Assembly (NCBI GenBank): GCA_963760795.1
Contig: CAVXEP010000016.1
Coordinates: 1-64,000 of the forward strand
Reading direction: 5' to 3'
DNA length: 64,000 bases
Source: an uncultured delta proteobacterium
GTDB taxonomy: Bacteria > Desulfobacterota > Binatia > UBA9968
The position numbers were made by a program, and so were the translations under genes. The notes beneath the pieces are model-generated. The model was given only the letters and a program-made list of their open reading frames with translations, did no database searches and was not told the origin of the DNA. Position 1 is the stretch's first letter; each line of letters begins with the position of its first letter. Shown piece after piece: positions 4,495 through 64,000 of this stretch.

Positions 4495-4514
4495 AACTGT
4501 TGGCAGTTGTCGGC

Positions 4515-4552
4515 AAAACCGCCGTGGCTCGAACGAGCCCGGCGGTTTTTTT
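4515..4552 (+). terminator. Intrinsic terminator after UbiD gene
   Basis: GC-rich hairpin followed by T7. Confidence 0.8.
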
Positions 4553-11754: not shown

Positions 11755-12224
11755 GGTGGTTTCGGCGAATGTGGTTGGTAACTCTGTAGCATAAAATTGG
11801 GGCGGGGTACTAACTAATTGGTTTCGCGCACGGCTGTGCCTGACCGCCAAGCTATGAGAACGATGGTTGCGACTCGAGAGCTGCCGATCGGGCGTCGCCA
11901 GCCGAGCAGCGATCATCAAATCGTTCCCGGGACGTGGACTCCGCCTGCCCGATTTCACTATTCGCTGGTGGCGTTGCAGTCCCTAATTTTTGTTAGAAAA
12001 ATCAGCATAAAAATTACTCTCGCTGTCAGCGTAATGCCCCCACGCTCACCGGGAAAACCATGGATTTATGCTCCACATTAGCCGGCTGTAAAGTAAGACC
12101 TTTGCAGAGGTGACGCGTTTGCCCGTGTACCGCCTGTGGTAGACTTGCACCTTTTTATTTCCGCAATGGACAACTCCGACCCGATTGGGACTTGAAATCT
12201 CATCATCTTTGTCCGGGATGTCAC

Positions 12225-12240
12225 TGGCATAATTGCTGCT
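12225..12240 (+). promoter_or_regulatory. Candidate sigma54 (-24/-12) promoter
   Basis: TGGCAT-AATTG-CTGCT with GG-N10-GC spacing. The predicted +1 near 12251 coincides with the start of the duplicated riboswitch block. Confidence 0.55.
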
Positions 12241-12250
12241 CTGACACCAA

Positions 12251-12348
12251 ATGAAGTTGACGCTGTGATCTGAAGTCCCCGACGTGGTCACCATGGGGCT
12301 CAGGGAGCGAGTGGTGAAACCGGCAACTCAAGGTTGCCGATTTTTTTT
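12251..12348 (+). ncRNA. c-di-GMP-II-type riboswitch with overlapping intrinsic terminator
   Basis: P1 AGUUG/CAACU, kink-turn UGA...GA, stem CCCC/GGGG, loop GGUCACCA pairing with UGGUGAAACC (pseudoknot). Terminator CGGCAAC/GUUGCCG plus U8. Confidence 0.85.
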
Positions 12349-12386
12349 GTTCGGTTTGGGAAATCGTCGAAGGGAGAATCGAAACG

Positions 12387-12842
12387 ATGTTGCACCGCTT
12401 GAAGGAAAACATAGGCCAGAGCGCGGTGGAATTCACCTTGGGGTTCTTACTTCTCTATACCGTCATCATGGCTGTCGTAGAGTTCTCGCACATGTTTTAT
12501 ACCAAGACCACTCTACAGCACGCGATCGCCGAAGCCGGCCGTTTCATGATCACGGGCCAAGGGATTGACCATACAGGAACCGACCCCAACGCTCGTTTGC
12601 AAAAGGTCCAAGACAAATTCTGTAATAATCTGATCGCGACGGGTCTTTCCTGCGCCAATGTTTCCTCCCATCTCACGCTGACCTGTGTCGGTGGTTGCGC
12701 GCAACCGGCCGGCGGTCCAGGTCAGACCGTAACCCTCACCGCGACATATTCGAGAGGGTGGTTTACCGGAATGTTCAATCATCTATTGCCCAGCATCACT
12801 CTTGTCGCCAACACGACCTGGAAAAACGAAGTCTATATGTAG
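12387..12842 (+). CDS. tadE: TadE/TadG-family minor pilin (pseudopilin)
   Basis: Prepilin site GQSAVEF, hydrophobic helix, LQHAIAEAGRF, C-terminal WKNE. Confidence 0.88.
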   Translation: MLHRLKENIGQSAVEFTLGFLLLYTVIMAVVEFSHMFYTKTTLQHAIAEAGRFMITGQGIDHTGTDPNARLQKVQDKFCNNLIATGLSCANVSSHLTLTCVGGCAQPAGGPGQTVTLTATYSRGWFTGMFNHLLPSITLVANTTWKNEVYM

Positions 12843-12860
12843 CCGACCCCGGAGATCACC

Positions 12861-13523
12861 ATGAGATTCTTACGCAAATACTTGAGTTCAAGAAAAGGTC
12901 AAAGCCTGGTCGAGATGACATTTGGCATCCCGATGTTGATAGGTTTGGGTTTCGGGGTCATCGAAATCGGCAACATGATTAACTCCTACCTGGTGTTAAC
13001 CCATTTGACCCGTGAAGCCACTAACATTGTCTCTCGTCAGCCTGGAGCAAAGGGCTCGACACAATGGGCGACAAGCGTCAACACGGATTTGAATGCGGTT
13101 ATCAGCAAGGCAAGCCCGGTCATTAACCCAACCGGCAGCGGCGCAAGAGGGCCGAATCAGTATAAGATTTATTACTCCATGGTCGAATGGAATCCCACCC
13201 CAGGTGTTTGCGGCGGCGGGTTAATGACGAATGGCCAGCCGGACAATTACCGGATTCGCCGCAGCAACACCGGTTGGGCCGGCAACGTCACCTGGCAATA
13301 TGGTTCGCTCAGCCAAAATAGCAACTTGGGTAATGATGGAGATTGCGCCTACCTGCTTTTGCCTGAGGTCAAGAATCTTTCTGCACAGGGGCTTGTCCTT
13401 CATGTCGTTGAAGTCTTCTATGATTATGCCCCAAGCAAGTTAACGCCGGTGGAAGGGTTCATCGGTGCTCTCGCGCCCGGAATATTCTATCGCAGAACGG
13501 TTTTCATGGATGTCGTCGGCTAA
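12861..13523 (+). CDS. TadE-family minor pilin
   Basis: KGQSLVEM, hydrophobic helix, LTREA, VEVFYDY. Confidence 0.85.
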   Translation: MRFLRKYLSSRKGQSLVEMTFGIPMLIGLGFGVIEIGNMINSYLVLTHLTREATNIVSRQPGAKGSTQWATSVNTDLNAVISKASPVINPTGSGARGPNQYKIYYSMVEWNPTPGVCGGGLMTNGQPDNYRIRRSNTGWAGNVTWQYGSLSQNSNLGNDGDCAYLLLPEVKNLSAQGLVLHVVEVFYDYAPSKLTPVEGFIGALAPGIFYRRTVFMDVVG

Positions 13524-13561
13524 CTCGGCAGGTCGTGATGTCACGTACATAGGTCGAGGAA

Positions 13562-14759
13562 ATGATTATGAAACACAAAAACGAAAAGGGCCAAGCACTG
13601 GTTTTCATCTTGTTATTGTTCGCCATACTGCTCTTTCTGGTTGGCTTAGCCAGCGACGGCGGGCGAGCGTACTTGGTTAGAGCCTCGATGGCTCGAGTCG
13701 TCGATGCCGCGGCGATCGCCGCGGCTGCCAAGGTCAATAGCGGGGGACTAACCGCGGCGCAAACCGCTGCATGCGACTCGGCGCGGATGAACGGTGTCAC
13801 CAACTGCGGCATTCTTGATGTCACCCAGGTGACTACTAACGACGCCGCGGGCAATCCCAAAAGCGCCGTCAAAGTCACGGCCAACGTTGCCACACCGACT
13901 ATTTTCGTTGCCGCTGGCAAACTGATGGGTTGCACTACTTGCAGCGTAATCAATGTCTCGGTTAGCGCAGTGGCAGCGGGGGGCGGGACTATCGATCTGG
14001 CCATGACTCTCGACGATACGGCTTCTATGAGCGGTGGCGGTTGGCTCGGTCCAATGAAGACGGGCGCCAACGCATTGGTAGACGCACTTTTCCCTGTGAG
14101 CGGCTCGACGACCTCCTTGGCCTCCATGGTGCCTTTTCGAGGGATGTTATAACCTGACCGGAGCAAGCGATTGTAAGAAGAGTCAGGAGTATTCAACCGG
14201 GCACATTGCATCGCTTACCAATACTACTTCGCAACTCCACAACGCCATCAACGCGCTCCCCGGAACCGGTGGATCCGGCACCAACGTTTGTGAAGGGCTC
14301 ACCCAGTCCCGCCTCAAACTTTTTCAACCCGGTGTCGCCCGGCCGAACTCACAAAAATTTCTCGTATTGCTGTCGGATACCGACATGAACTACAGCACTG
14401 CCGCAAGTTTTGCCTCATGTACGCCAACGTCCGGCGGCACAGCCAATCACAAAGTCAATTTGTTAACCTACAACGTGGCCACAAGACATCAAGAATGGGA
14501 CAAACGTCGGCATGACCGGGCAAATTGACGGACAGACGGTAAAAGTATTCGTGATATTTTATGGCAGCGCCGGCCCTGCGCCAGCCAACTGTACACCACC
14601 GCCGGCAGGTGCGACTTCCTGGGACACCACGCCGCTCAACCTCGGCTCGTTGTATCGCGTCGAGCGCCGGCGACATGTATTTTGCCCCTACGCCCGAGCG
14701 ATGTAACAACCGCATTTCAGCAAATCATCAACCGATTACCGGTAGTCTTGGTTAACTAA
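13562..14759 (+). CDS. tadG: TadG-like pilin with C-terminal vWA domain; four +1 frameshifts (about 14141, 14493, 14645, 14696)
   Basis: KGQALV, DGGRAY...VDAAAIAAA, MIDAS-like DDTASM. Joining frames gives GTNVCEGL, FLVLLSD, VKVFVIFYG, YFAPT..DVTTAFQQIINRLPVVLVN*. Confidence 0.8.
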
Positions 14760-14778
14760 TTTGCTACTCTAACATCCG

Positions 14779-14877
14779 ATGAAGTTGACGCTATGATCTG
14801 AAAGCCCCGACGTGGTCACCATGGGGTTCAGGGAGCGAATGGTGAAACCGGCAACTCAAAGTTGCCGGTTTTTTTTT
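14779..14877 (+). ncRNA. Second c-di-GMP-II-type riboswitch with overlapping terminator
   Basis: Near-identical to 12251-12348, with differences that keep the pairings. Terminator CCGGCAAC/GUUGCCGG plus U9. Confidence 0.85.
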
Positions 14878-14913
14878 GAAAGACCGGCATGACAACCGAA
14901 AGGAGAGTTTGTC

Positions 14914-15462
14914 GTGATCACCGGTCTGATCAGTAGGTTCGCAAGTCGAAAGGTGGCTTTGTTGGCGGTGGCACTGCCGATGATGCTCCTGTTGGTGCTC
15001 GCGGCAGTCGAAGTCTCGCGGGCCATCAGCGTCAACAGCACCCTGGTCCAGTTCACGCGCGAAGCGGGATATTTAACCTCTCGGGGAACCGAAGTGAACA
15101 GGTCTCTGACGACGGCCATTGCCGCCACGGCGCCGACCCTGCGCGACAACAATAAGCAGCAGTGGAAGGTGATTTACTCCCAGCTACGTCAGCAAGCGGG
15201 AAACTCCTGTTCGGCGAAACCCTGTCCCTATCAGGTCGACAGCCGAGTTGAGGCGGGCGACCTTAAAGCACCGAGCACTATCGGGGCGGTCAAAAAACCG
15301 ATAATGATTTCCGGCATAGACAGTGTCGAGCCGAATCAGGTTTTTCATTCGATCGAAGTGTATTACGACTACCGTCCGGAGTTTCTTGCCTTGGTTGGCA
15401 ATATCGTCGATCTAAAGTTTTACGAAAAAACCGTTTACACGGACCTCGCAGCGATTCGCTGA
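14914..15462 (+). CDS. TadE-like minor pilin
   Basis: LPMMLLLVLAAVEVSR...FTREAG.LTSR, KVIYS, IEVYYDY, similar to 12861-13523. RBS aggag; no clear GQ..E site. Confidence 0.75.
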   Translation: MITGLISRFASRKVALLAVALPMMLLLVLAAVEVSRAISVNSTLVQFTREAGYLTSRGTEVNRSLTTAIAATAPTLRDNNKQQWKVIYSQLRQQAGNSCSAKPCPYQVDSRVEAGDLKAPSTIGAVKKPIMISGIDSVEPNQVFHSIEVYYDYRPEFLALVGNIVDLKFYEKTVYTDLAAIR

Positions 15463-15524: not shown

Positions 15525-15558
15525 AAAAGGGAGTCGGATTAGTAATCCGACTCCCTTT
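15525..15558. terminator. Bidirectional intrinsic terminator
   Basis: aaaagggagtcggatt-agt-aatccgactcccttt between convergent genes. Confidence 0.75.
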
Positions 15559-20451: not shown

Positions 20452-21996
20452 TCAGCGGTTATAGCGCGCCGGCAACTCGGTTGCGAACGGCGGGCGGCGC
20501 AAGCGCGCCGCGCAGTTGGCATCGAGTTCTTTGGCGGAGCCATTCGTGATGAACGCGACGATCTGATCGCGCGCACAGGGCGATGCGTAGCTATGCGGCG
20601 TGCTGCGCAAAATAACTTGGCGCCCATTGGGCAAGCTCTTGAGCGCCTGGGCGCCAAACTCCGCCGGTGTCGCCGGATCGATATCGCCGGAGAGCATGAG
20701 CACCGGCGCGGCAGCGCGCACCGGGGTATGATAATCCGGGTCGATCGCGCCGCGCGGCCAGTAAGCGCAAGCTTGTTGGTGGCGGCGCGTGCGATAATCG
20801 CCCAAGAACGTGCCGGCGGTGGCGCGTTCCAGCTCCGATTCATCGATGAACGGTATGGACTCGGCGCAGGTGGCGCTAAAATAGGCGCCGAGAAACACGC
20901 CAAATTCCGGTGCCGCCGCCGATCTCGTGAGGATTCGCACATAGGGAGACCAGTCGCCCTTGGCTGCGCTGTCAATGATCAGCGGGAGAAGGCTGGCAGT
21001 GCGATGACTATAGAGCAAGGAGACAACTTGTCTGGCGAAGACACCGTGCGAAAGCGCCACCGTCTGGATCGCCTTGCTTTCGGGATGGGCCACTGCAAAA
21101 TTCACCGTCCCCGGTTTAAACCCGTCAAGAATCCGACCGAAGCTCGCAGCGAGATTGGGGTATGCCGAGGCGCAGACGACATCCGCAGCGCAGTCGTGAA
21201 ACAGCCTGGTCATCGCCTGTTGCGCCGCTAAGGCGAACTGCAGCGGTAGTTTCGCGGGGGGAGCGGCAACGCCGGCAAGAACCGCGGACCGTACATGGTC
21301 GGAATAACGCCGCACATATTCCAAGGCGGCGAGCGAGCCATGAGAGATGCCGTACAGGTTAACTTTGTCGTAGCCCAATGCGGATCGGATCTCTTCAAGG
21401 TCTTCGATCCCTAGCGGCGTAGTATAATATCTTAGGTCGGCGGTCGGCGCTAATTTTTCCCGGCATGTCTGAACTCTGACGGGGTCGAAAAGCTCAAGAA
21501 AAAAATTCTGCACCTCGGTGCGGTCGATTGGAAAATCGCATTGCAGCCCGTTGGAATCCCCGGTGCCGCGCATGTCGACGAAGACCAGGTCGCGCTCGCG
21601 GCGCAACTCGCGCATGATCGCATCTTCACCGGCGCTGGCGATGCGCGCCGCGGCTTGTCCCGGCCCGCCGGCCAAATAGAAAACCGGGTCAGCCTTGGCT
21701 GCGGAACTTCGTGCCGGCAGGACCACGATATTGAGCCCAATCCTGCGGCCGGTTTGTGCCGCGCGATTTTCGTAGACTTGATGTTTACCGCAGAGCGCGG
21801 TTTCCTTGTGTTTGGAAATGGTGCAGGAGGTTAACTCAATGGTGGTCGGTCTCTTCTCGGTGACTGGCGAATGGGTGACCGTTGCACACGAGGAGGCGAC
21901 CGCGAGAACGATTGCCAGAACAACGAGAGGTGAAAAACCGTCATGCCGGCGCAGGCCGGCATCCAATCTTGGTTTCGTGGATATTTGCACAATCAC
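20452..21996 (-). CDS. TAP-like alpha/beta hydrolase (secreted peptidase)
   Basis: LAGGPG, DMRGTG.S, YGISHG nucleophile, GDIDPATP, C-terminal His. Confidence 0.85.
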   Translation of the reverse strand: MIVQISTKPRLDAGLRRHDGFSPLVVLAIVLAVASSCATVTHSPVTEKRPTTIELTSCTISKHKETALCGKHQVYENRAAQTGRRIGLNIVVLPARSSAAKADPVFYLAGGPGQAAARIASAGEDAIMRELRRERDLVFVDMRGTGDSNGLQCDFPIDRTEVQNFFLELFDPVRVQTCREKLAPTADLRYYTTPLGIEDLEEIRSALGYDKVNLYGISHGSLAALEYVRRYSDHVRSAVLAGVAAPPAKLPLQFALAAQQAMTRLFHDCAADVVCASAYPNLAASFGRILDGFKPGTVNFAVAHPESKAIQTVALSHGVFARQVVSLLYSHRTASLLPLIIDSAAKGDWSPYVRILTRSAAAPEFGVFLGAYFSATCAESIPFIDESELERATAGTFLGDYRTRRHQQACAYWPRGAIDPDYHTPVRAAAPVLMLSGDIDPATPAEFGAQALKSLPNGRQVILRSTPHSYASPCARDQIVAFITNGSAKELDANCAARLRRPPFATELPARYNR

Positions 21997-25627: not shown

Positions 25628-25710
25628 CCGTCATTCCGGCGTAGGCCGGTATCCAGACTTCGAACTAGACACCCACCCCGCCTGGATGCCGGTTTCCACC
25701 GGCATGACGG
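25628..25710. repeat. Inverted CGTC REP pair
   Basis: ccgtcattccggcgtaggccggtatccag ... ctggatgccggtttccaccggcatgacgg. Confidence 0.85.
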
Positions 25711-35681: not shown

Positions 35682-35808
35682 CGTCATTCTCGCGTACGCG
35701 GGAATTCAGGTGACGGACAGTGTCCGTCATACCGTTGAAAAACGGTATCTAGGTTGAGGGGATGGACCCCGGTCGTCACCGGGGTGACGATAGAACGGGA
35801 ATGACGGA
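35682..35808. repeat. Cluster of CGTC REP palindromes
   Basis: cgtcattctcgcgtacgcgggaattcag; cgtcataccgttgaaaaacggtatctag; ggaccccggtcgtcaccggggtgacg; gggaatgacgg. Confidence 0.8.
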
Positions 35809-37149: not shown

Positions 37150-37259
37150 TCGCTACACTCAGGATGACAGAACTCGGACTTCCGCGCATTGCTCCACAGT
37201 CTCTCTAGGGAGAAACGGTGGGATGGGGCGAGGCTATTTTCCAATCGGAGGGGATCATC

Positions 37260-38343
37260 ATGGGAATCATAGACGCCGATACGCATATCGATGAAACCGA
37301 GGACACTTGGGAGTTCATGACGGGCGACGATCTCAGGTTCAAACCGACGACACAGTACCCCGCCAATCCCGATCCGACCAAAGTTCCCGACCCGTTATTG
37401 GCTGATCGATGGGCGGCGCCAGCTGCGTTTTATCCGCGGCGACGAAGAATCGGGGACGGTGGTGGAATCGCGGGAACTGCTGGATGTCCAAGTCCGGCTC
37501 AAACATATGGACCAGCTCGGCACCGATATTCAAGTCATCTACCCGACGGTTTTTCTCATGGAGGCGACCGAGAAGCCCGAAGTCGCCAGCGCGCTGCGCC
37601 GTAGCTACAACCGCTGGCTTGCCGATCGCTGTGGGCGATCGGCTGGCCGGTTGCGCTGGGTGTGCCTGCCGCCGCTGCATAATATGGACGAGACCGTCAA
37701 AGAGCTGCGCTTCGCCAAAGAGCATGGCGCGTGCGGCGTCTTGAAGAAGGGCGATCGCGAGGCCGACAAATGGATCACCGATCCGTACTTTCTGCCGCTT
37801 TACGCAGAGGCGGAAAAGCTCGACCTGCCGATCTGCATTCATACCGGTTCGGGTATCCCGGATTTTTCGCCGGCGCGGGATTTTTCTCTAGCGCAGTTCT
37901 GGCGCACTAAAGCCGCGGCGGTCAACGGTATCGAGACCTTGATCGTCAACAACATTCCGGCGCAGTTTCCCAAGCTGCGTTTCGGCTGCATCGAAGCGGG
38001 CGCTTCGTGGGTCAACTTTGTCGATTATGACCTGCGCCGGCGGATGAAGTCGCGCACTGGGCGGGTGAGCGTCCTGGGCGGTCCGCCGACGATAATCAAG
38101 AGCAATGTCTACCAAGAAAACCGCATCTACGTCACCTGTCAGGTCGATGAAGATTTGCCGTACATCCTGCAATATGTCGGCGAGGACAATCTGATCGTCG
38201 GCTCCGACTACACGCACCGCGATCCGTCGATGGAGTTGGAGTTTCGTACACTATTGCAGCAACGAGCCGACCGGGGCGAGATTCCAAAGACGGCGGTGGA
38301 GAAGATCCTCTATGATAATCCCAAAGCGTTCTACGGGTTATAG
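37260..38343 (+). CDS. Amidohydrolase_2 family protein (+1 frameshift near 37382)
   Basis: MGIIDADTHIDE, VIYPT, CIEAGASW, GSDYTH.D, ILYDNPKAFY. Confidence 0.87.
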
Positions 38344-38454
38344 ATGATTTGACGGCGCCGCCGGGGAACGGGTGGCTAGCTTGCCGCTCTTTAAAAACCC
38401 GCCGATCCGTATTAAGCAATGAAGAAACTAATCCAATCGTAAGGAGAAGCCACC

Positions 38455-39543
38455 GTGCGCATAATTGACGCTGACACACATATCGACGAAACCGATGCCA
38501 CTTGGGAGTTCATGACGAGCGGCGATCTGGCCTACAAGCCGACGACCGCTTATCCATCCAACCCCGATCCGAAACTGCCGCCGGCGCGCTATTGGGTGAT
38601 CGAGGGCAAGCGGCAAGTGCGCTTCATCCGCAGTGACAAGGATTCCGGTACCACCGTTGAGACCCGCGAACTGCTCGACGTCAACGCCCGGCTCAAACAT
38701 ATGGATGAGCTCGGCACCGATATTCAGGTGATTTATCCGACCTTGTTTCTAATGGAAGCGTCGGAGAATCCCGAGGCGAGCACGGCGACGCGGAAAAGCT
38801 ACAATCGCTGGTTGGGCGAGCGTTGCAGTCATTCGGGCGGCCGCCTGCGCTGGGCATGCATGCCGCCGGTGCAGAAAATCGATTCGGTGCTGGAGGAGCT
38901 GACCTGGGCGAAAGAGCATGGCGCCTGCGGCGTCGTGAAAAAAGGCGACCGCGAAGCTGGGAAATATCCCGCCGATCCCTATTTCGAACCGCTTTATGCG
39001 GCGGCGGAAAAACTCGATCTGCCGATCTGCATTCATACCGGCTCCGGCATTCCAGATTTTTCGCCGGCGCGGGAGTTCTCCCATGGCCAGTTTATGCGCA
39101 CCAAAGGGGCGGCGATCAACGGTGTGCTCGGATTGGTCTTGCACAAGATCCCGATGAAGTTCCCCAAGCTGCGCATCGGCTGTATCGAGGCCGGATCCAT
39201 GTGGACGCCGTTCGTGGCTTACGATTTGAAACGGCAGGCGATCAAGCAGCAGGGGCGCGAGTCGGTGGGTGTTCTCGGCGTGCCGCTGATCGATATTTCA
39301 ACCAATGTCTTCAAGGACAACCGGATCTGGGTCACCTGCCAGGTGGACGAGGACTTGCCGCTAATCCTCAAAACCGTCGGCGAGGATAATCTCATGGTCG
39401 GTTCGGACTATACCCACCGTGATCCGTCGATGGAGCTGGAATTTCGCAAAGAGTTGCAAGCCCGCGCCGACAAGGGCGACATCCCGCAGGCGGCGATTCA
39501 GAAAATTCTCTACGACAATCCGAAGGCGTTCTATGCGCTATAG
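38455..39543 (+). CDS. Amidohydrolase_2 family protein (tandem paralog)
   Basis: IIDADTHIDE, GSDYTHRDP; closely similar to the upstream gene. Confidence 0.9.
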   Translation: MRIIDADTHIDETDATWEFMTSGDLAYKPTTAYPSNPDPKLPPARYWVIEGKRQVRFIRSDKDSGTTVETRELLDVNARLKHMDELGTDIQVIYPTLFLMEASENPEASTATRKSYNRWLGERCSHSGGRLRWACMPPVQKIDSVLEELTWAKEHGACGVVKKGDREAGKYPADPYFEPLYAAAEKLDLPICIHTGSGIPDFSPAREFSHGQFMRTKGAAINGVLGLVLHKIPMKFPKLRIGCIEAGSMWTPFVAYDLKRQAIKQQGRESVGVLGVPLIDISTNVFKDNRIWVTCQVDEDLPLILKTVGEDNLMVGSDYTHRDPSMELEFRKELQARADKGDIPQAAIQKILYDNPKAFYAL

Positions 39544-39571: not shown

Positions 39572-39651
39572 CCGTCATGCCGGCGAAAGCCGGCATCCAT
39601 CTTCGCTTCTCCGACAATAACCCTGGATTCCGGCCTGCGCCGGAATGACGA
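39572..39651. repeat. Inverted CGTC REP pair
   Basis: ccgtcatgccggcgaaagccggcatcca ... ctggattccggcctgcgccggaatgacg. Confidence 0.85.
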
Positions 39652-40296: not shown

Positions 40297-40387
40297 CAAA
40301 GATAGTTTCAAGTTTCGGGTTTCGAGTTTCGTGTTGAACCACGGACTCGGAATCCGAGACTTTTTGTTTTGTATCTGTTCCTAAGTT

Positions 40388-40472
40388 CGTCATACCGGCG
40401 AAAGCCGGTATCCATCTTGGTCTTCGGTTCGCCGGCAACAAACCTGGATTCCCGCTTTCGCGGGAATGACGA
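40388..40472. repeat. Inverted CGTC REP pair
   Basis: cgtcataccggcgaaagccggtatcca ... ctggattcccgctttcgcgggaatgacg. Confidence 0.85.
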
Positions 40473-40510: not shown

Positions 40511-41563
40511 ATGGCAACGGCAGCATTAGCAGCGGAACGAGTCGAAATACCGGATGACCTCTGGGAGGCGCAAGCCTTCTTCGAAGAACAGGGCTGGTCC
40601 GATGGCCTGCCGATCATCCCGCCCACGGAAGCGCGGGTCGCGCAAATGCTGGCGGCGACCAAGCGCAAAGCGGATGAAGTGATCGGCGCGGTGCCGCCAC
40701 GCTGGGCGCAAGCGACGGTGGAAAAAATCGCTATCAACGGGGTCATGGCCGGCTGCAAGCCTGAGTATATGCCGACGCTGATCGCCGCGGTGGAAGCGAT
40801 CACCGATCCCAAGTTGAATCTCTACGCCCTGCAAGCCACCACCGGCGGGCCGGCGGTGATGATCATCATCAACGGGCCGGTGCGCCAACAACTGAACGTC
40901 AACGGCGGTTCCAACGCCCTTGGCGAAGGCTGGCGCGCCAACGCCACCATCGGCCGCTTCGTGCAATTAGTGAAGCGCAATATCGGCGGCTCGTATCCGG
41001 GCTCCACTTGCAAAGCCACGCTAGGGTGGCCGGGAAAATATTCCATCTGCGTCGGCGAAAACGAGGAAGCGAGTCCCTGGGAGCCGCTCCATGTCGAGCG
41101 CGGTTTCAAAGCCGATGAGAGCACGGTGACGGCGATCAGCGCGGATGCGTCGATCCGCGCGTCGGACCTGGACAGCTCGAAAGCGGAAGGCGTGCTGATC
41201 AATTTCGCGCAAAAAATGGAAGGCCCTTCCGGGCCTGAGGCGATCATGGTCGTCTGCCCGGAGCATGCCAAGATCATCGCCGACGACGGCTTCAGTAAGA
41301 AGGACGTGCAGAAGTTCATTTGGGAGCGCGCCGCGTACCGGATGAAAGATTTGCCCGACGAAACCTTCTTCCAGCGGGTCAAGCGGCGATCCGATCTTAA
41401 ACTGACTCGCGACAGCATCATTCCGGTCACCGACAAGCCCGAAGATATTCTCGTCATCGTCGCCGGCGGCGATGGCTCGCAGTCGCAGTATATTCACGTC
41501 TGGGGGCAGAGCACGCCGGAAGGCGGTTCGACGCGGTCGGTGACTAAAGTTATAAAAGATTAA
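40511..41563 (+). CDS. Conserved uncharacterised protein typically partnering UGSC proteins
   Basis: GWSDGLPIIPPT..RV..ML, ATVEKIAINGVMAGC.PEY, RANATIGR, GENEEASPW, VAGG. Confidence 0.75.
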   Translation: MATAALAAERVEIPDDLWEAQAFFEEQGWSDGLPIIPPTEARVAQMLAATKRKADEVIGAVPPRWAQATVEKIAINGVMAGCKPEYMPTLIAAVEAITDPKLNLYALQATTGGPAVMIIINGPVRQQLNVNGGSNALGEGWRANATIGRFVQLVKRNIGGSYPGSTCKATLGWPGKYSICVGENEEASPWEPLHVERGFKADESTVTAISADASIRASDLDSSKAEGVLINFAQKMEGPSGPEAIMVVCPEHAKIIADDGFSKKDVQKFIWERAAYRMKDLPDETFFQRVKRRSDLKLTRDSIIPVTDKPEDILVIVAGGDGSQSQYIHVWGQSTPEGGSTRSVTKVIKD

Positions 41564-41565
41564 GG

Positions 41566-41610
41566 GTTCCAATCGTTCAAAACGTTCCAGTCGTTCCAAT
41601 CGTGTCGGAA
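41566..41610 (+). repeat. (GTTCMANNC)x4-GT(GT)CGGAA dispersed element
   Basis: gttccaatc gttcaaaac gttccagtc gttccaatc gtgtcggaa, identical to 46461-46505. Confidence 0.85.
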
Positions 41611-46396: not shown

Positions 46397-46460
46397 CGTA
46401 GCCGCTTCTTGTGGACAATCTGTGAGGATGGGCGTTGATGAAAGTGAACAAGGCTTAGGA

Positions 46461-46505
46461 GTTCCAATCGTTCAAAACGTTCCAGTCGTTCCAATCGTGT
46501 CGGAA
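46461..46505 (+). repeat. (GTTCMANNC)x4-GT(GT)CGGAA dispersed element
   Basis: 45 bp identical to 41566-41610. Confidence 0.85.
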
Positions 46506-51803: not shown

Positions 51804-51871
51804 CGGCTAGTGGGAATAGCGTTGGCGGATGACGGAGAGACGACGAATCGATCTGCGCATTGGATATCGTT

Positions 51872-51955
51872 CCGTCATGCCGGCTCTATCGTCACCCCGG
51901 TGAAGACCGGGGTCCATCGCCTCAACCTGGATACCGTTTTTCAACGGTATGACGG
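51872..51955. repeat. CGTC REP cluster
   Basis: cgtcatgccgg; cgtcaccccggtgaagaccggggtcca; ctggataccgtttttcaacggtatgacgg. Confidence 0.8.
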
Positions 51956-52122
51956 ACACTGTCCGTCACCTGGATGCCGCGTGCGCGGGACTGACGAATA
52001 GAAGGAAAATCGATTTCAATTAGCATATGTGAGATTGTTGGCTCATGAGTCTGATAGATTTATTTTTGGGGTGTTTTCGCGTGAATCTTTAAATTGCACA
52101 CGGCACTTTTTGGGAGTGGATT

Positions 52123-60480: not shown

Positions 60481-61773
60481 TTGGACACCGCATTGGCATC
60501 ACGCAACCCAAGTACCTCGACAACTGCGAATACGTCAAAGCCGAAAGTCGCTTTCGCGGCGCTCAAGCATAAAGACTACCGCTGGTTTCTTATCGCCACC
60601 ATGCTGGCGATGATGGCCGACAACATCGAGCATGTGATCAGCTACTGGGTCTTGTTCCAAAAGTTTCAGTCGCCGGTGCTCGCCGGGTTCGCCGTCATCA
60701 GCCATTGGACGCCGTTTCTCCTGCTGTCGGTCTATTTCGGCGGCTTGGCCGACCGCTACGACTGCCGCAAGCTGATTCAAATCGCGCAAATCATGTACAT
60801 GGGCGTGACGGTGGTGTGGGCGATCTTGTTTTTGACCGATACGATTCAAATCTGGCACGCCTGCGTTCTTCTCATCATTCACGGCATCGCCGGGGTGTTC
60901 TGGACTCCGGCCGAGATTCTCCTGATTCATGATATCGTTGGCGGCGACGATTTGCCGAGCGCGGTCAGGCTTAACGCCACCGCGCGCCAGCTTGGCATTC
61001 TTTTCGGTCCGGCGGTGGGCGGCGCAATGATGTTATGGTTAGGCGCGCCGGCTGGTCTATTGATCAACGCGCTCATCTACGTGCCGTTTACCGTCTGGTT
61101 GATGCTGGTCCCTTACACTGGACACCTGCGCGAGGGCGCGCCGGCGCGCCGCGGGCTGAGATGGCGCGACGCCTTTGCCGTGCTGCGTGAGGTCGCGCAA
61201 CACCGCTCCATCGTGACGATGATTGTCCTCGGCGGCGCGGCGTCGTTGTTCGTCGGTAATGCGTTCCAAGCGAGCATGCCCGAGTTCGCCCATGATCTCG
61301 GCACCGACAAGGCCGACTTTGCCTACAGCGCACTGCTCGCCGCCAATGCCGCCGGTTCGGTTTTCGGCGGGTTTGTCCTCGACGGCAAGCAATGGGTGCC
61401 GCCGACGGTGAAAGCGGCGATCGGCTGCGCGATTCTTTGGTGCCTAACGATGACGGTGTTCGCTTTTTCCACTAGCTATCCGCTGTCGTTGGCGTTGTTG
61501 TTTATCGCCGGCGCGCTCAATCTGGCTTTCTACTCCATCGCACAGACGATTGTTCAACTAGAAGCGCCGATGCATCTGCGCGGCCGCCTGATCGGTCTGT
61601 TTTCGATGTCGGCCTTCGGTCTGCGCGCTTTTAGCGGTGTCACCGTCGGAGTTATCGGCGGTTTGATCGGCGTGCACTGGTCGCTGGCGCTAAGCTCGCT
61701 GGTATTGCTGGCGGTGACGTTGGTTTTGTTTGCCTTTGCGCAAGAACGTCAGCCGATTGTCGAGCCGGGGTGA
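60481..61773 (+). CDS. MFS transporter (MFS_3-like), tandem copy 1
   Basis: FAALKHKDYR, LADRYDCRK, LRGRLIGL. Confidence 0.9.
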   Translation: MDTALASRNPSTSTTANTSKPKVAFAALKHKDYRWFLIATMLAMMADNIEHVISYWVLFQKFQSPVLAGFAVISHWTPFLLLSVYFGGLADRYDCRKLIQIAQIMYMGVTVVWAILFLTDTIQIWHACVLLIIHGIAGVFWTPAEILLIHDIVGGDDLPSAVRLNATARQLGILFGPAVGGAMMLWLGAPAGLLINALIYVPFTVWLMLVPYTGHLREGAPARRGLRWRDAFAVLREVAQHRSIVTMIVLGGAASLFVGNAFQASMPEFAHDLGTDKADFAYSALLAANAAGSVFGGFVLDGKQWVPPTVKAAIGCAILWCLTMTVFAFSTSYPLSLALLFIAGALNLAFYSIAQTIVQLEAPMHLRGRLIGLFSMSAFGLRAFSGVTVGVIGGLIGVHWSLALSSLVLLAVTLVLFAFAQERQPIVEPG

Positions 61774-61860
61774 GTGGGGTTCGCAGTCAAGTCCACCCCG
61801 AGTTTTCGATTCGTGGCAAAGATGATGTTTGAAATCCCGCGCCGTCGACGGAAGTGAAAG

Positions 61861-61953
61861 CCGTCATGCCGGCGCAGGCCGGCATCCATCTTTGCTCCAT
61901 CGATCGCCTCGGTGCCACTATGAAATTATGGATTCCGGCTTCCGCCGGAATGA
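61861..61953. repeat. Inverted CGTC REP pair
   Basis: ccgtcatgccggcgcaggccggcatcca ... tggattccggcttccgccggaatga. Confidence 0.82.
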
Positions 61954-62069
61954 TGGAAATTAGAGTCGATGAACTCGCATCCTTCGATTTCAAAGGCGAG
62001 GGTTCACCAATGTACATTTGTTTGCGTCACCCATCGATATTGGCTACTGTCCGAAGATAATCTAAAAGT

Positions 62070-63338
62070 TTGGAGATTGTATTGGCAACTGCTGAACCGC
62101 AAAAAAAGCTTGCCTTCGCGGCGCTGCATCATAAGGATTTTCGCAGTTACTTTTGGACCACGGCGCTGGCGATGATGGCCGACAGTATCGAGCATGTGAT
62201 CAGTTACTGGCTGCTCTATCAAAAATTCCACTCGCCGGTGCTGGCCGGCTTCGCCGTGCTCAGTCACTGGACGCCGTTCCTGTTATTTGCGGTTTATTTC
62301 GGCGCCATGGCAGACCGCTACGATTGCCGCAAGGTCATCCAAGTAGCGCAAATCATGTACATGGGCGTGTCGGCGGCTTGGGCGTTTCTTTTTTGGACCG
62401 ATACGATTGAACTTTGGCATGCCTGCGTGTTGTTGGTCATTCACGGCATGGCCGGCGTGCTCTGGGGGCCCGGCAGCCAATTGCTGATTCACGACATCGT
62501 CGGCCGCGAGCAGTTGCAGAGCGCTATCCGTCTCAACTCGACAAGCCGGCAATTGGGTATTCTCTTCGGTCCCGCGGTGGGCGGCGGATTGATGTTGATC
62601 TTCAGTCCCGCGGTCGGCTTGGTGGTGAACACGTTAATATATTTGCCGCTGACGATCTGGCTCCTGACCGTGCCCTACACCGGTCACAGCCGCGCGGGTG
62701 CGGCGCCGGCGCGGCGCGCCATTGGTTGGGGCGATGCGCTTCAGGTGCTCCGTGAAGTCGCCAATAATCGGCCGATCGTCACCATGGTCATTCTTGGCGG
62801 CTGCGTGTCGTTCTTTGTCGGCACCGCTTTCCAAGCAACCATGCCCGAGTTCGCCCATGACCTTGGCACCGAAAAGGCCGGGTTTGCCTACAGCGCGCTG
62901 CTCGGCGCCAACGCCGCGGGCGCGGTCGTCGGCGGCTTTCTCCTCGAAGGCCGAGCGTGGCTGCCGCCCAGCGTCAAGACGGCGTTCATCAGCGCGATCC
63001 TGTGGTGCGTCGCCATCGCGTCCTTCGCGCTTTCGGAAAATTATTACATGTCCTTGATACTGCTCTTTTGTGCGGGCGTGTTAAATCTGACGTTTTCCTC
63101 GATGGCCCAGACCATCGTCCAGTTGCGCTCGCCGGCGCCGCTGCGCGGCCGGGTGATCGGCCTATACTCGATGGCGAGCATGGGGTTCAAGGCGTTTAGC
63201 GGGATCACGGTGGGCGTGGTCGGCGGCTTGATCGGCGTGCACTGGTCGTTGGCGCTGAGCGCGATGGTGCTCATGACGATAACACTGGTTCTTTTCGCCT
63301 TCGCGATTCCCGGCTTGAGGCAAGGGGAGTCGGGCTAG
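62070..63338 (+). CDS. MFS transporter, tandem copy 2
   Basis: FAALHHKDFR, IEHVISYW, MADRYDCRK. Confidence 0.9.
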   Translation: MEIVLATAEPQKKLAFAALHHKDFRSYFWTTALAMMADSIEHVISYWLLYQKFHSPVLAGFAVLSHWTPFLLFAVYFGAMADRYDCRKVIQVAQIMYMGVSAAWAFLFWTDTIELWHACVLLVIHGMAGVLWGPGSQLLIHDIVGREQLQSAIRLNSTSRQLGILFGPAVGGGLMLIFSPAVGLVVNTLIYLPLTIWLLTVPYTGHSRAGAAPARRAIGWGDALQVLREVANNRPIVTMVILGGCVSFFVGTAFQATMPEFAHDLGTEKAGFAYSALLGANAAGAVVGGFLLEGRAWLPPSVKTAFISAILWCVAIASFALSENYYMSLILLFCAGVLNLTFSSMAQTIVQLRSPAPLRGRVIGLYSMASMGFKAFSGITVGVVGGLIGVHWSLALSAMVLMTITLVLFAFAIPGLRQGESG

Positions 63339-63425
63339 TCTGTTCACAACCTTCGAACCGTTCAAAACGTTTGAGGCTCGATAGATTTGACCCGTCGTGG
63401 CAAGTCCCAGCGAGTAATTTGACGA

Positions 63426-64000
63426 ATGACTGCAAAAACTAATTCTCCGAGGGATGCGCCGGCAGCCATATCCGCCGGCCGTGTCGCTTTCGCCGCGCTG
63501 CACCATCCCGACTATCGCAAATATTTTGTCGTCATCATGTTGGCGCAGATGGGCGACAACATCGAGCATGTAATCAGCTACTGGCTGCTCTACCAAAAAT
63601 TTCACTCGCCGGTGCTGGCCGGGTTTGCCGTCATCAGCCACTGGACGCCGTTTCTATTTTTCGCCGTCTATTTCGGCGCGTTGGCGGATCGCCATGATTG
63701 CCGCCGGCTGATCCAAACCGCCCAAGCCATGTACGGCTTGGTATCGCTTACCTGGGGCATCTTATTTCTCACCGACACTATCGAAGTTTGGCATGCCTGC
63801 GCGCTGCTTGTGCTCCACGGCCTGTCGGGCGTCTTGGGCCAGCCCGCTAGCCAACTGATCATTCACGACATCGTCGGCCGGGAATATTTGCAAAGCGCGG
63901 TGCGGTTGAACTCCACGGGACGCAACATCGCGGTTCTTTTCGGTCCCGCCGTTGGCGGTGCGACGATGCTTTGGTTCGGCGGGCCGGCCGGTCTGTTTAT
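63426..64000 (+). CDS. MFS transporter, tandem copy 3 (runs off the window)
   Basis: MTAKTNS...VAFAALHHPDYRKYF...DNIEHVISYW, open to the edge. Confidence 0.88.
   Translation, partial: MTAKTNSPRDAPAAISAGRVAFAALHHPDYRKYFVVIMLAQMGDNIEHVISYWLLYQKFHSPVLAGFAVISHWTPFLFFAVYFGALADRHDCRRLIQTAQAMYGLVSLTWGILFLTDTIEVWHACALLVLHGLSGVLGQPASQLIIHDIVGREYLQSAVRLNSTGRNIAVLFGPAVGGATMLWFGGPAGLF

Follow-up and report, generated by a model that had tools for sequence, protein, structure and literature searches.

Two copies of a ~100-nt element, located in a 64,000-nt stretch of DNA from an uncultured delta proteobacterium of the Binatia (GenBank assembly GCA_963760795.1, contig CAVXEP010000016.1, positions 1 to 64,000; hereafter the window), are very probably genuine class-II riboswitches for cyclic dimeric guanosine monophosphate (c-di-GMP), acting as transcriptional ON switches for an accessory cassette of Tad minor-pilin genes. 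Family membership, structural elements, the overlap with a terminator, gene families, and conservation in relatives were computed here; the identity of the ligand, the direction of regulation, where the promoters lie, and what the proteins do are inferred.

An original prediction, made from the letters of the sequence, described the element as duplicated directly upstream of two TadE-type genes and assigned it to the class-II c-di-GMP riboswitches. The coordinates given there are correct. The duplication is recovered both by a repeat finder, whose one direct-repeat family of this kind pairs 12233-12348 with 14761-14876 (90% identity over 116 nt, with a spacing of 2528), and by pairwise alignment of the copies, in which likeness begins ~16 nt 5' of the aptamer and stops with the U run; a Pfam TadE domain is present in both downstream genes (genes 1 and 4 of the cassette). 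Scanning the whole window with cmscan at gathering thresholds against 4227 Rfam families returned two matches in total, and these are the two repeat copies. Both match RF01786 (c-di-GMP-II), with 54.9 and 52.1 bits, in agreement with the proposed class. The suggested check against RF01786 and its variant models gave a divided answer: copy 1 exceeds the RF01786 threshold, but copy 2 exceeds only that of the sister model RF03169 (c-di-GMP-II-GAG), yet lacks the variant base, since the position aligned with A69 is A (GAA) in both copies and G in the variant. Because of this base, copy 2 reads as a canonical class-II aptamer that simply passes the looser threshold of the sister model, whose name, according to the Rfam consensus lines, would refer to three consensus bases (GAG versus the canonical GCA). 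In the whole genome (6.58 Mb, 35 contigs, 89% complete), RF01786 matches the two copies in the window and no others. The two elements are very probably class-II c-di-GMP riboswitches and, as such, a real but fairly ordinary additional example of a well-known sensor.

Table 1. Features of the riboswitch-bearing cassette and its surroundings (window coordinates).
Feature	Position	Strand	Evidence and remarks
Candidate extended -10 (TGgCATAAT)	12225..12233	+	~15 nt 5' of aptamer 1; candidate from sequence reading
c-di-GMP-II aptamer 1	12249..12334	+	RF01786 54.9 bits (threshold 53.5), E 2.2e-9; P1, P2, kink-turn, P3 and pseudoknot readable
Intrinsic terminator 1	12321..12348	+	8-bp stem 12321-12339, 3-nt loop, then A + U8 (12341-12348); folding and terminator scan
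tadE-like gene 1, 151 aa	12387..12842	+	Pfam TadE 46.2 bits; prepilin-type N-terminus G/QSAVEF
tadE-like gene 2, 220 aa	12861..13523	+	Pfam TadE 31.1 bits; N-terminus G/QSLVEM
tadG-like gene 3 (Tad N-terminal + vWA)	13562..14759	+	Pfam Tad 32.5 bits; frame broken by four +1 shifts
c-di-GMP-II aptamer 2	14777..14861	+	RF03169 52.5 bits (threshold 40); RF01786 52.1 bits, E 9.5e-10 (local E-value scan); canonical ligand-pocket bases
Intrinsic terminator 2	14844..14877	+	13-bp stem 14844-14872; U run 14869-14877; folding (-21 kcal/mol, z -3.6) and terminator scan
tadE-like gene 4, 182 aa	14914..15462	+	Pfam TadE 27 bits; C-terminus like that of gene 2
Strong GC hairpin at cassette end	15529..15555	.	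Sequence reading; 29-bit alignment, far below threshold, to the terminator portion of an unrelated Rfam model

The two copies align to the RF01786 model over its full length (positions 1-84), and the P1 stem, the kink-turn, and the loop complementarity described beforehand can all be read in the sequence. P1 is formed by AGUUG and CAACU (12255-12259 with 12324-12328 in copy 1; 14783-14787 with 14852-14856 in copy 2). In copy 1 the kink-turn reads UGA...GGA, and P2 and P3 are as in the model. The pseudoknot joins the P3 loop GGUCACCA (12287-12294) to UGGUGA-AA-CC (12312-12321) through eight base pairs, with two A bulged, and copy 2 has the same one. An alignment of 19 aptamers from the genus (one of them, L008, belongs to G004, an unpublished genome) contains compensatory changes in 7 of 24 predicted pairs, which supports the P1-P2-kink-turn-P3 fold; the P2 pair adjoining the ligand is C-G in nine of these sequences and U-A in seven.

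For the solved class-II structure 3Q3Z, PMC13715770 describes a pocket in which one guanine of c-di-GMP is read by A69 and the other by G73, with A70 intercalated between these bases and A61 as the ceiling. Where the Rfam consensus reads GUGCAACCG, both copies read GUGAAACCG at the aligned place, and by alignment to the model consensus both keep the equivalents of A61, A69, A70, and G73. The sole change in the pocket region is C68 to A, and because the loop G has changed to U, the pseudoknot pair at this position is preserved. The aptamers could instead be specificity variants that respond to a different cyclic dinucleotide, or to the GAG-variant ligand, in place of c-di-GMP. Copy 2 clears the RF03169 threshold only, the U-A pseudoknot pair (A68) of the GAG consensus is present in both copies, and the genome encodes a single GGDEF protein; moreover, small changes to the scaffold, including the ligand-adjoining pair (C-G here), shift selectivity among isomers of cyclic GMP-AMP (cGAMP) (PMC13715770). 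Even so, we regard this alternative as improbable. A occupies the A69 position in the two copies as well as across the 19 genus sequences, A70, G73, and A61 are canonical too, copy 2 scores as high in RF01786 as in RF03169 (52.1 versus 52.5 bits), and the gene context of pilins, adhesins, lipoproteins, and exopolysaccharide (EPS) genes is the usual c-di-GMP regulon.

The arrangement by which c-di-GMP would control transcription can be read from the 3' half of each element. Sequence reading, folding, and a terminator scan bear out the predicted overlap between the terminator 5' arm and the 3' strand of P1: the arm consists of this strand plus C71-G73 in copy 1, or A69-G73 in copy 2. Since the arm is made of the P1 strand and pocket bases, the ligand-bound fold and the terminator are mutually exclusive, and an ON logic is therefore predicted, as proposed originally and in line with riboswitch Cdi-2-4 of Clostridioides difficile. 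When folded in full, the leaders show the terminator and P2/P3 but not P1 in both the minimum-energy and the centroid structure; hairpin 2 clearly beats shuffled sequences (z -3.6). The terminator 3' arm starts just 4 nt past the aptamer end, so the ON/OFF decision is presumably kinetic.

In the absence of ligand, P2/P3 and afterwards the terminator hairpin would form in the nascent leader, halting RNA polymerase at the U run (12341-12348 or 14869-14877). With c-di-GMP bound, P1 and the pseudoknot would hold C71-G73 together with CAACU, i.e., the terminator 5' arm; the terminator would be blocked and transcription would continue. Switch 1 would let the polymerase into tadE-tadE-tadG(vWA) and switch 2 into the fourth, tadE-like gene, and a transcript begun upstream of switch 1 would need two ligand-dependent read-throughs to reach gene 4. 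Gene 4 would be double-gated provided that no separate promoter serves switch 2. Switch 1 is located in a 428-nt gap after a divergent gene, and switch 2 begins 17 nt past the tadG stop codon; pairwise alignment places ACTAAT, a poorer counterpart of the candidate extended -10 of switch 1, before switch 2, where it overlaps that stop codon. The products, made at high c-di-GMP, would be an accessory set of Tad minor pilins plus a vWA adhesin, encoded apart from the Tad machinery.

All four genes of the cassette carry a TadE (PF07811) or Tad (PF13400) N-terminal domain, each above its cut-off. Prepilin peptidase recognizes an N-terminal G/xxxxE(F/Y) motif; a prepilin-like version is found in genes 1 and 2, while gene 3 reads G/QALVF without the E, and gene 4 has no G/xxxxE. 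The flanking genes are metabolic according to Pfam, with a luciferase-like monooxygenase on the other strand and, further on, an amidohydrolase and a Rieske oxygenase. The hairpin at the cassette end is a probable operon-end or bidirectional terminator; just three U follow it, and the terminator scan makes no call at 15529-15555.

The riboswitch is frequent in the genus, whose public relatives are labeled Candidatus Binatia. We searched 31 genomes of the genus, the source genome and the unpublished G004 among them: RF01786 is found in 19 at E <= 0.001 and above threshold in 13, amounting to 26 matches, one or two per genome. At the same E-value, none of 16 genomes from two other families of the order has a match, and in an even sample of the phylum, 6 of 151 genomes do (E <= 1e-4), the source genome alone above threshold. 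A TadE cassette follows seven of the 26 genus matches (two each in the source genome, G019, and G022, and one in G013), i.e., in just four of the 19 riboswitch-bearing genomes. The orthologous cassettes share the aptamer-plus-terminator design. G019 has two switches, to which the intact aptamers and terminators of the source genome are near-identical. G013 has the first switch only; no second riboswitch was found at its cassette, and the fourth tadE gene is absent. In G022 (contig C378), the first aptamer (L022 1501-1586, minus strand) is degenerate, scoring 32 bits and having lost P1 and the U run; the second is intact, with a target assigned by synteny as the contig ends 29 nt beyond.

The remaining 19 genus matches have other neighbors. 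Four precede Kelch/glyoxal-oxidase-like secreted proteins (three scanned with Pfam, L012 assigned by similarity to L011), two precede DUF3568 lipoproteins, and four precede small secreted proteins with no Pfam match. Four more stand by genes without a TadE domain (a CopD-like protein, below the Pfam cut-off, near one, a solute-binding protein near another, and no Pfam match for the rest), and five have no clear open reading frame within reach. A spore-coat-U-like identity considered for some of these targets was dropped, as Pfam gave it no support. The suggested search for the motif upstream of tad genes in related genomes thus finds it in four genomes of the genus, the source genome included, and in close metagenome relatives, but other targets predominate. 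Among metagenome relatives of TadE1 with sequence upstream, the aptamer, with its terminator, precedes 3 of 3 at 87-95% identity (one shows both switches, 2523 nt apart), and no aptamer precedes any of the 3 at 56-64% identity, one of which has just 188 nt upstream; a seventh locus has no upstream sequence. Because only the close TadE1 relatives carry the aptamer, the link between riboswitch and TadE is, on these sequences, young and narrow.

A pattern scan of genome contigs found at least 119 stretches with the aptamer subtype (GGUCACC...UGGUGAANCCG), in metagenome-assembled genomes (MAGs) labeled Thermomicrobiales, Dehalococcoidia, Actinomycetota, Halanaerobiales and other Bacillota, Binatia, Acidobacteriota, Armatimonadota, and others. 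Twelve of these loci (13 sites) were picked by hand for taxonomic spread and are not a random sample; TadE lies downstream in 0 of the 13 sites, and a general link between the subtype and TadE was rejected. The genes downstream of these sites encode an LCP/CBM protein, a sugar transferase, DUF3568 proteins (three), SdrD-type adhesins (two), PilB, an EPS enzyme, a helix-turn-helix (HTH) protein, a beta-helix protein, and two proteins with no Pfam match. One Sphaerobacteraceae MAG contig (L035) bears another split aptamer pair inside one gene string: its aptamers (2165-2200 and 4498-4533) lie 2.3 kb apart on one strand and precede the genes for an LCP/CBM protein and a sugar transferase. The original prediction held that the class is not commonly described in such a lineage. 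In the literature searched, no paper was found describing it there, nor any joining Binatota or Binatia with c-di-GMP or a riboswitch; however, the class is frequent in the genus and its subtype occurs in many phyla. Likewise, no paper was found that joins c-di-GMP-II with TadE or Tad minor pilins, although supplements of riboswitch discovery papers could list such cases.

The same prediction placed the cassette in a diderm, Tad-bearing lineage. The organism is diderm, because the source genome encodes LptD beside a type II secretion system (T2SS), as well as PilB/PilC. A Tad machine is shown for the genus and not for the source genome: the sister genome G019 has a complete Tad locus (secretin, TadZ-like, CpaF, TadB, TadC, two TadE, and TadG-like genes), at which no riboswitch was found. 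In the 89%-complete source genome, PF00437 retrieves GspE and PilB and no CpaF/TadA, PF00482 retrieves GspF and PilC and no TadB/TadC, RcpC has no match, and the best matches to G019 CpaF are just 30-35% identical. One A24 peptidase is encoded, and matches to Flp pilin are sub-threshold (18-20 bits) and away from any tad genes. A second orphan tadE-tadE-tadG cassette (vWA, 518 aa) lies among unrelated genes on contig C32:446222-448844, without a riboswitch. For a genome of 6.6 Mb, the c-di-GMP toolkit in this assembly is very small and consists of one PAS-GGDEF protein, three HD_5 (HD-GYP-like) proteins, two PilZ matches, and MshEN domains in PilB and GspE, with no EAL domain found in the part of the genome assembled. 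c-di-GMP can be made, since the PAS-GGDEF cyclase is encoded.

Three-frame translations locate the breaks in gene 3 near 14140, 14480, 14646, and 14691, each a +1 shift. The tadG orthologues of G019 (417 aa) and G013 (415 aa) are intact and have Tad and VWA domains. In three DNA metagenome runs, every contig that covers a break site is without exactly one base there (1 of 1 covering run at site 1, 2 of 2 at site 2, and 3 of 3 at sites 3 and 4). These contigs are 90-99% alike to the window and therefore come from relatives; the extra bases may be a consensus error or mark a strain-specific pseudogene, and the relatives' contigs, which show the frame open elsewhere, cannot discriminate between the two. 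Compared with G019, the tadG-like gene is a mosaic, with the 5'-terminal ~480 nt and the 3'-terminal ~70 nt near-identical and the vWA-coding middle strongly diverged, a pattern that suggests exchange or fast diversification of the adhesin domain. In a soil metatranscriptome run (X20), two contigs of 209 and 226 nt match tadE1 and tadE2 at 95-99% identity, a weak hint of expression in which DNA carry-over is possible; the run is present as contigs only, and transcript ends and termination are unreadable from the stretches left uncovered. The soil and bog labels of the metagenome runs are based on small word shares, and no argument here relies on them. In run X1, a single contig passes directly from 12127 to 14781, without switch 1 or genes 1-3; with 28 letters on its shorter side, it was not relied on.

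Several of these observations, and some others, weigh against functional switches controlling a functional cassette. The RF01786 scores are marginal, copy 1 standing 1.4 bits above and copy 2 1.4 bits below the threshold of 53.5. P1 is short, with five real pairs, and the outer pairs of the model are mismatched. The pseudoknot is invariant across the 19 genus aptamers and hence has no covariation support. The fold of leader 1 has an unremarkable z-score (-0.79). A promoter scan gave no convincing two-hexamer promoter for either switch; its single candidate on the plus strand falls inside aptamer 2, and its total of 4, versus 3.1 expected, is at the level of shuffled sequence. The Tad machine presumed to serve the cassette products was not found in the source genome, an absence that 89% completeness leaves unproven. 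Lastly, the tadG frame is broken in the assembly, and the cassette could be decaying here.

The last two points lead to a second alternative, in which the elements are relics: the terminators would be constitutive or inactive, the aptamers would no longer regulate, and the cassette would be decaying after loss of the Tad machine. The missing Tad motor and platform genes, the four frame shifts in tadG, and the degenerate first aptamer of G022 (32 bits, no U run) fit this picture, and not every predicted switch of this kind works: just 11 of 16 predicted c-di-GMP riboswitches of C. difficile are functional (PMC6366702). Against it, the two copies have kept aptamer and terminator intact, share ~90% identity, and are near-identical to those of G019, whose genome has a full Tad locus; the contigs of three metagenome runs lack the extra bases, so the breaks may be assembly errors; and the genome is just 89% complete. 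Decay is thus quite improbable in our judgment. Finally, some genus aptamers (L003, L004, L007, and L014) have no terminator and must use another platform, but OFF switching, or control of translation instead of read-through, is highly improbable for the present pair, as the bound aptamer excludes a terminator built from its P1 strand and part of its pocket, and each ribosome-binding site is found 30-50 nt past the U run, unpaired with the aptamer.

Studies of this riboswitch class have dealt almost exclusively with Clostridia; the present pair extends it to a diderm lineage of uncultured soil bacteria and links it to Tad (type IVc) minor pilins. A bolder interpretation, which we put forward tentatively as possible but rather unlikely, is that the cassette is a c-di-GMP-inducible, exchangeable 'tip module' of the Tad pilus, with a hypervariable vWA adhesin encoded apart from the core tad locus, serially double-gated, and the sole direct transcriptional output of c-di-GMP. 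Were this true, genes 1-3 would respond in a graded manner and gene 4 more steeply, roughly as the square, and the two riboswitches would be the only direct transcriptional output of a tiny c-di-GMP network. With its serial two-gate layout and very small c-di-GMP network, the locus offers a compact system for studying how one second messenger sets the composition of a pilus tip. The mechanism itself is textbook; of modest interest are the splitting of the two gates, the hypervariable adhesin module with its unlinked position, and the sparseness of the c-di-GMP network.

Other repeats occur elsewhere in the window. Six copies of a 43-nt element with a GC-rich hairpin (CCGTCATGCCGGCGnnnGCCGGCATCCA...) are found at 21938-21980, 25628-25670, 39572-39614, 40387-40429, 51889-51931, and 61861-61903 and look like a REP-like intergenic repeat. 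Inverted repeats of 108 nt (35701-35808 and 51871-51978, 93% complementary) enclose ~16 kb and could mark a mobile or invertible segment. Tandem paralogous gene copies occupy 37256-39543 and 60605-63840, in units of ~1.2 kb (two copies) and ~1.5 kb (three copies) with 72-81% identity. The repeat finder also reports a 76-nt repeat at 41535-41610 and again at 46430-46505.

Known systems resemble this cassette in different respects. Canonical Tad loci include tadE/tadF/tadG of Aggregatibacter and cpa of Caulobacter. The cassette shares with them TadE and TadG/vWA-type domains, and its first two proteins have G/xxxxE(F/M) prepilin-like N-termini; unlike them, it stands alone between metabolic genes. 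The core Tad locus of the genus has a tadE-tadE-tadG set of its own, without a riboswitch. As for the aptamers, they have in common with the RF03169 GAG variant the scaffold and the U-A pseudoknot pair beside the bulged purines, and copy 2 exceeds the variant threshold, but the A69-aligned position is A here and G in the variant.

In terms of regulation, the closest counterpart is found in C. difficile, where every validated class-II switch is an ON switch, Cdi-2-4 before pilA1 among them (PMC6366702). Cdi-2-4 and the present pair share the aptamer class, a terminator-based ON logic, and subunits of type IV-family filaments as targets, and in both cases high c-di-GMP would favor adhesion. They differ in that the host here is diderm, the controlled genes encode Tad (type IVc) minor pilins plus a tip-type vWA protein instead of the major pilin, the cassette is unlinked to the assembly machinery, and a second switch lies within the same gene string. 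Tandem c-di-GMP-II riboswitches have also been cataloged: PMC9481103 counts 59 doublets and 9 triplets, most of which lie upstream of a gene for a surface-anchor protein in Paraclostridium. Similarly, two switches of the same class lie here on one transcription path, each with its own terminator, an arrangement that can sharpen the response. However, the tandems described there are adjacent and share one leader, whereas the present pair is 2.5 kb apart with three genes between; genes 1-3 would thus be placed under one gate, and gene 4 under two, or under one if it has its own promoter.

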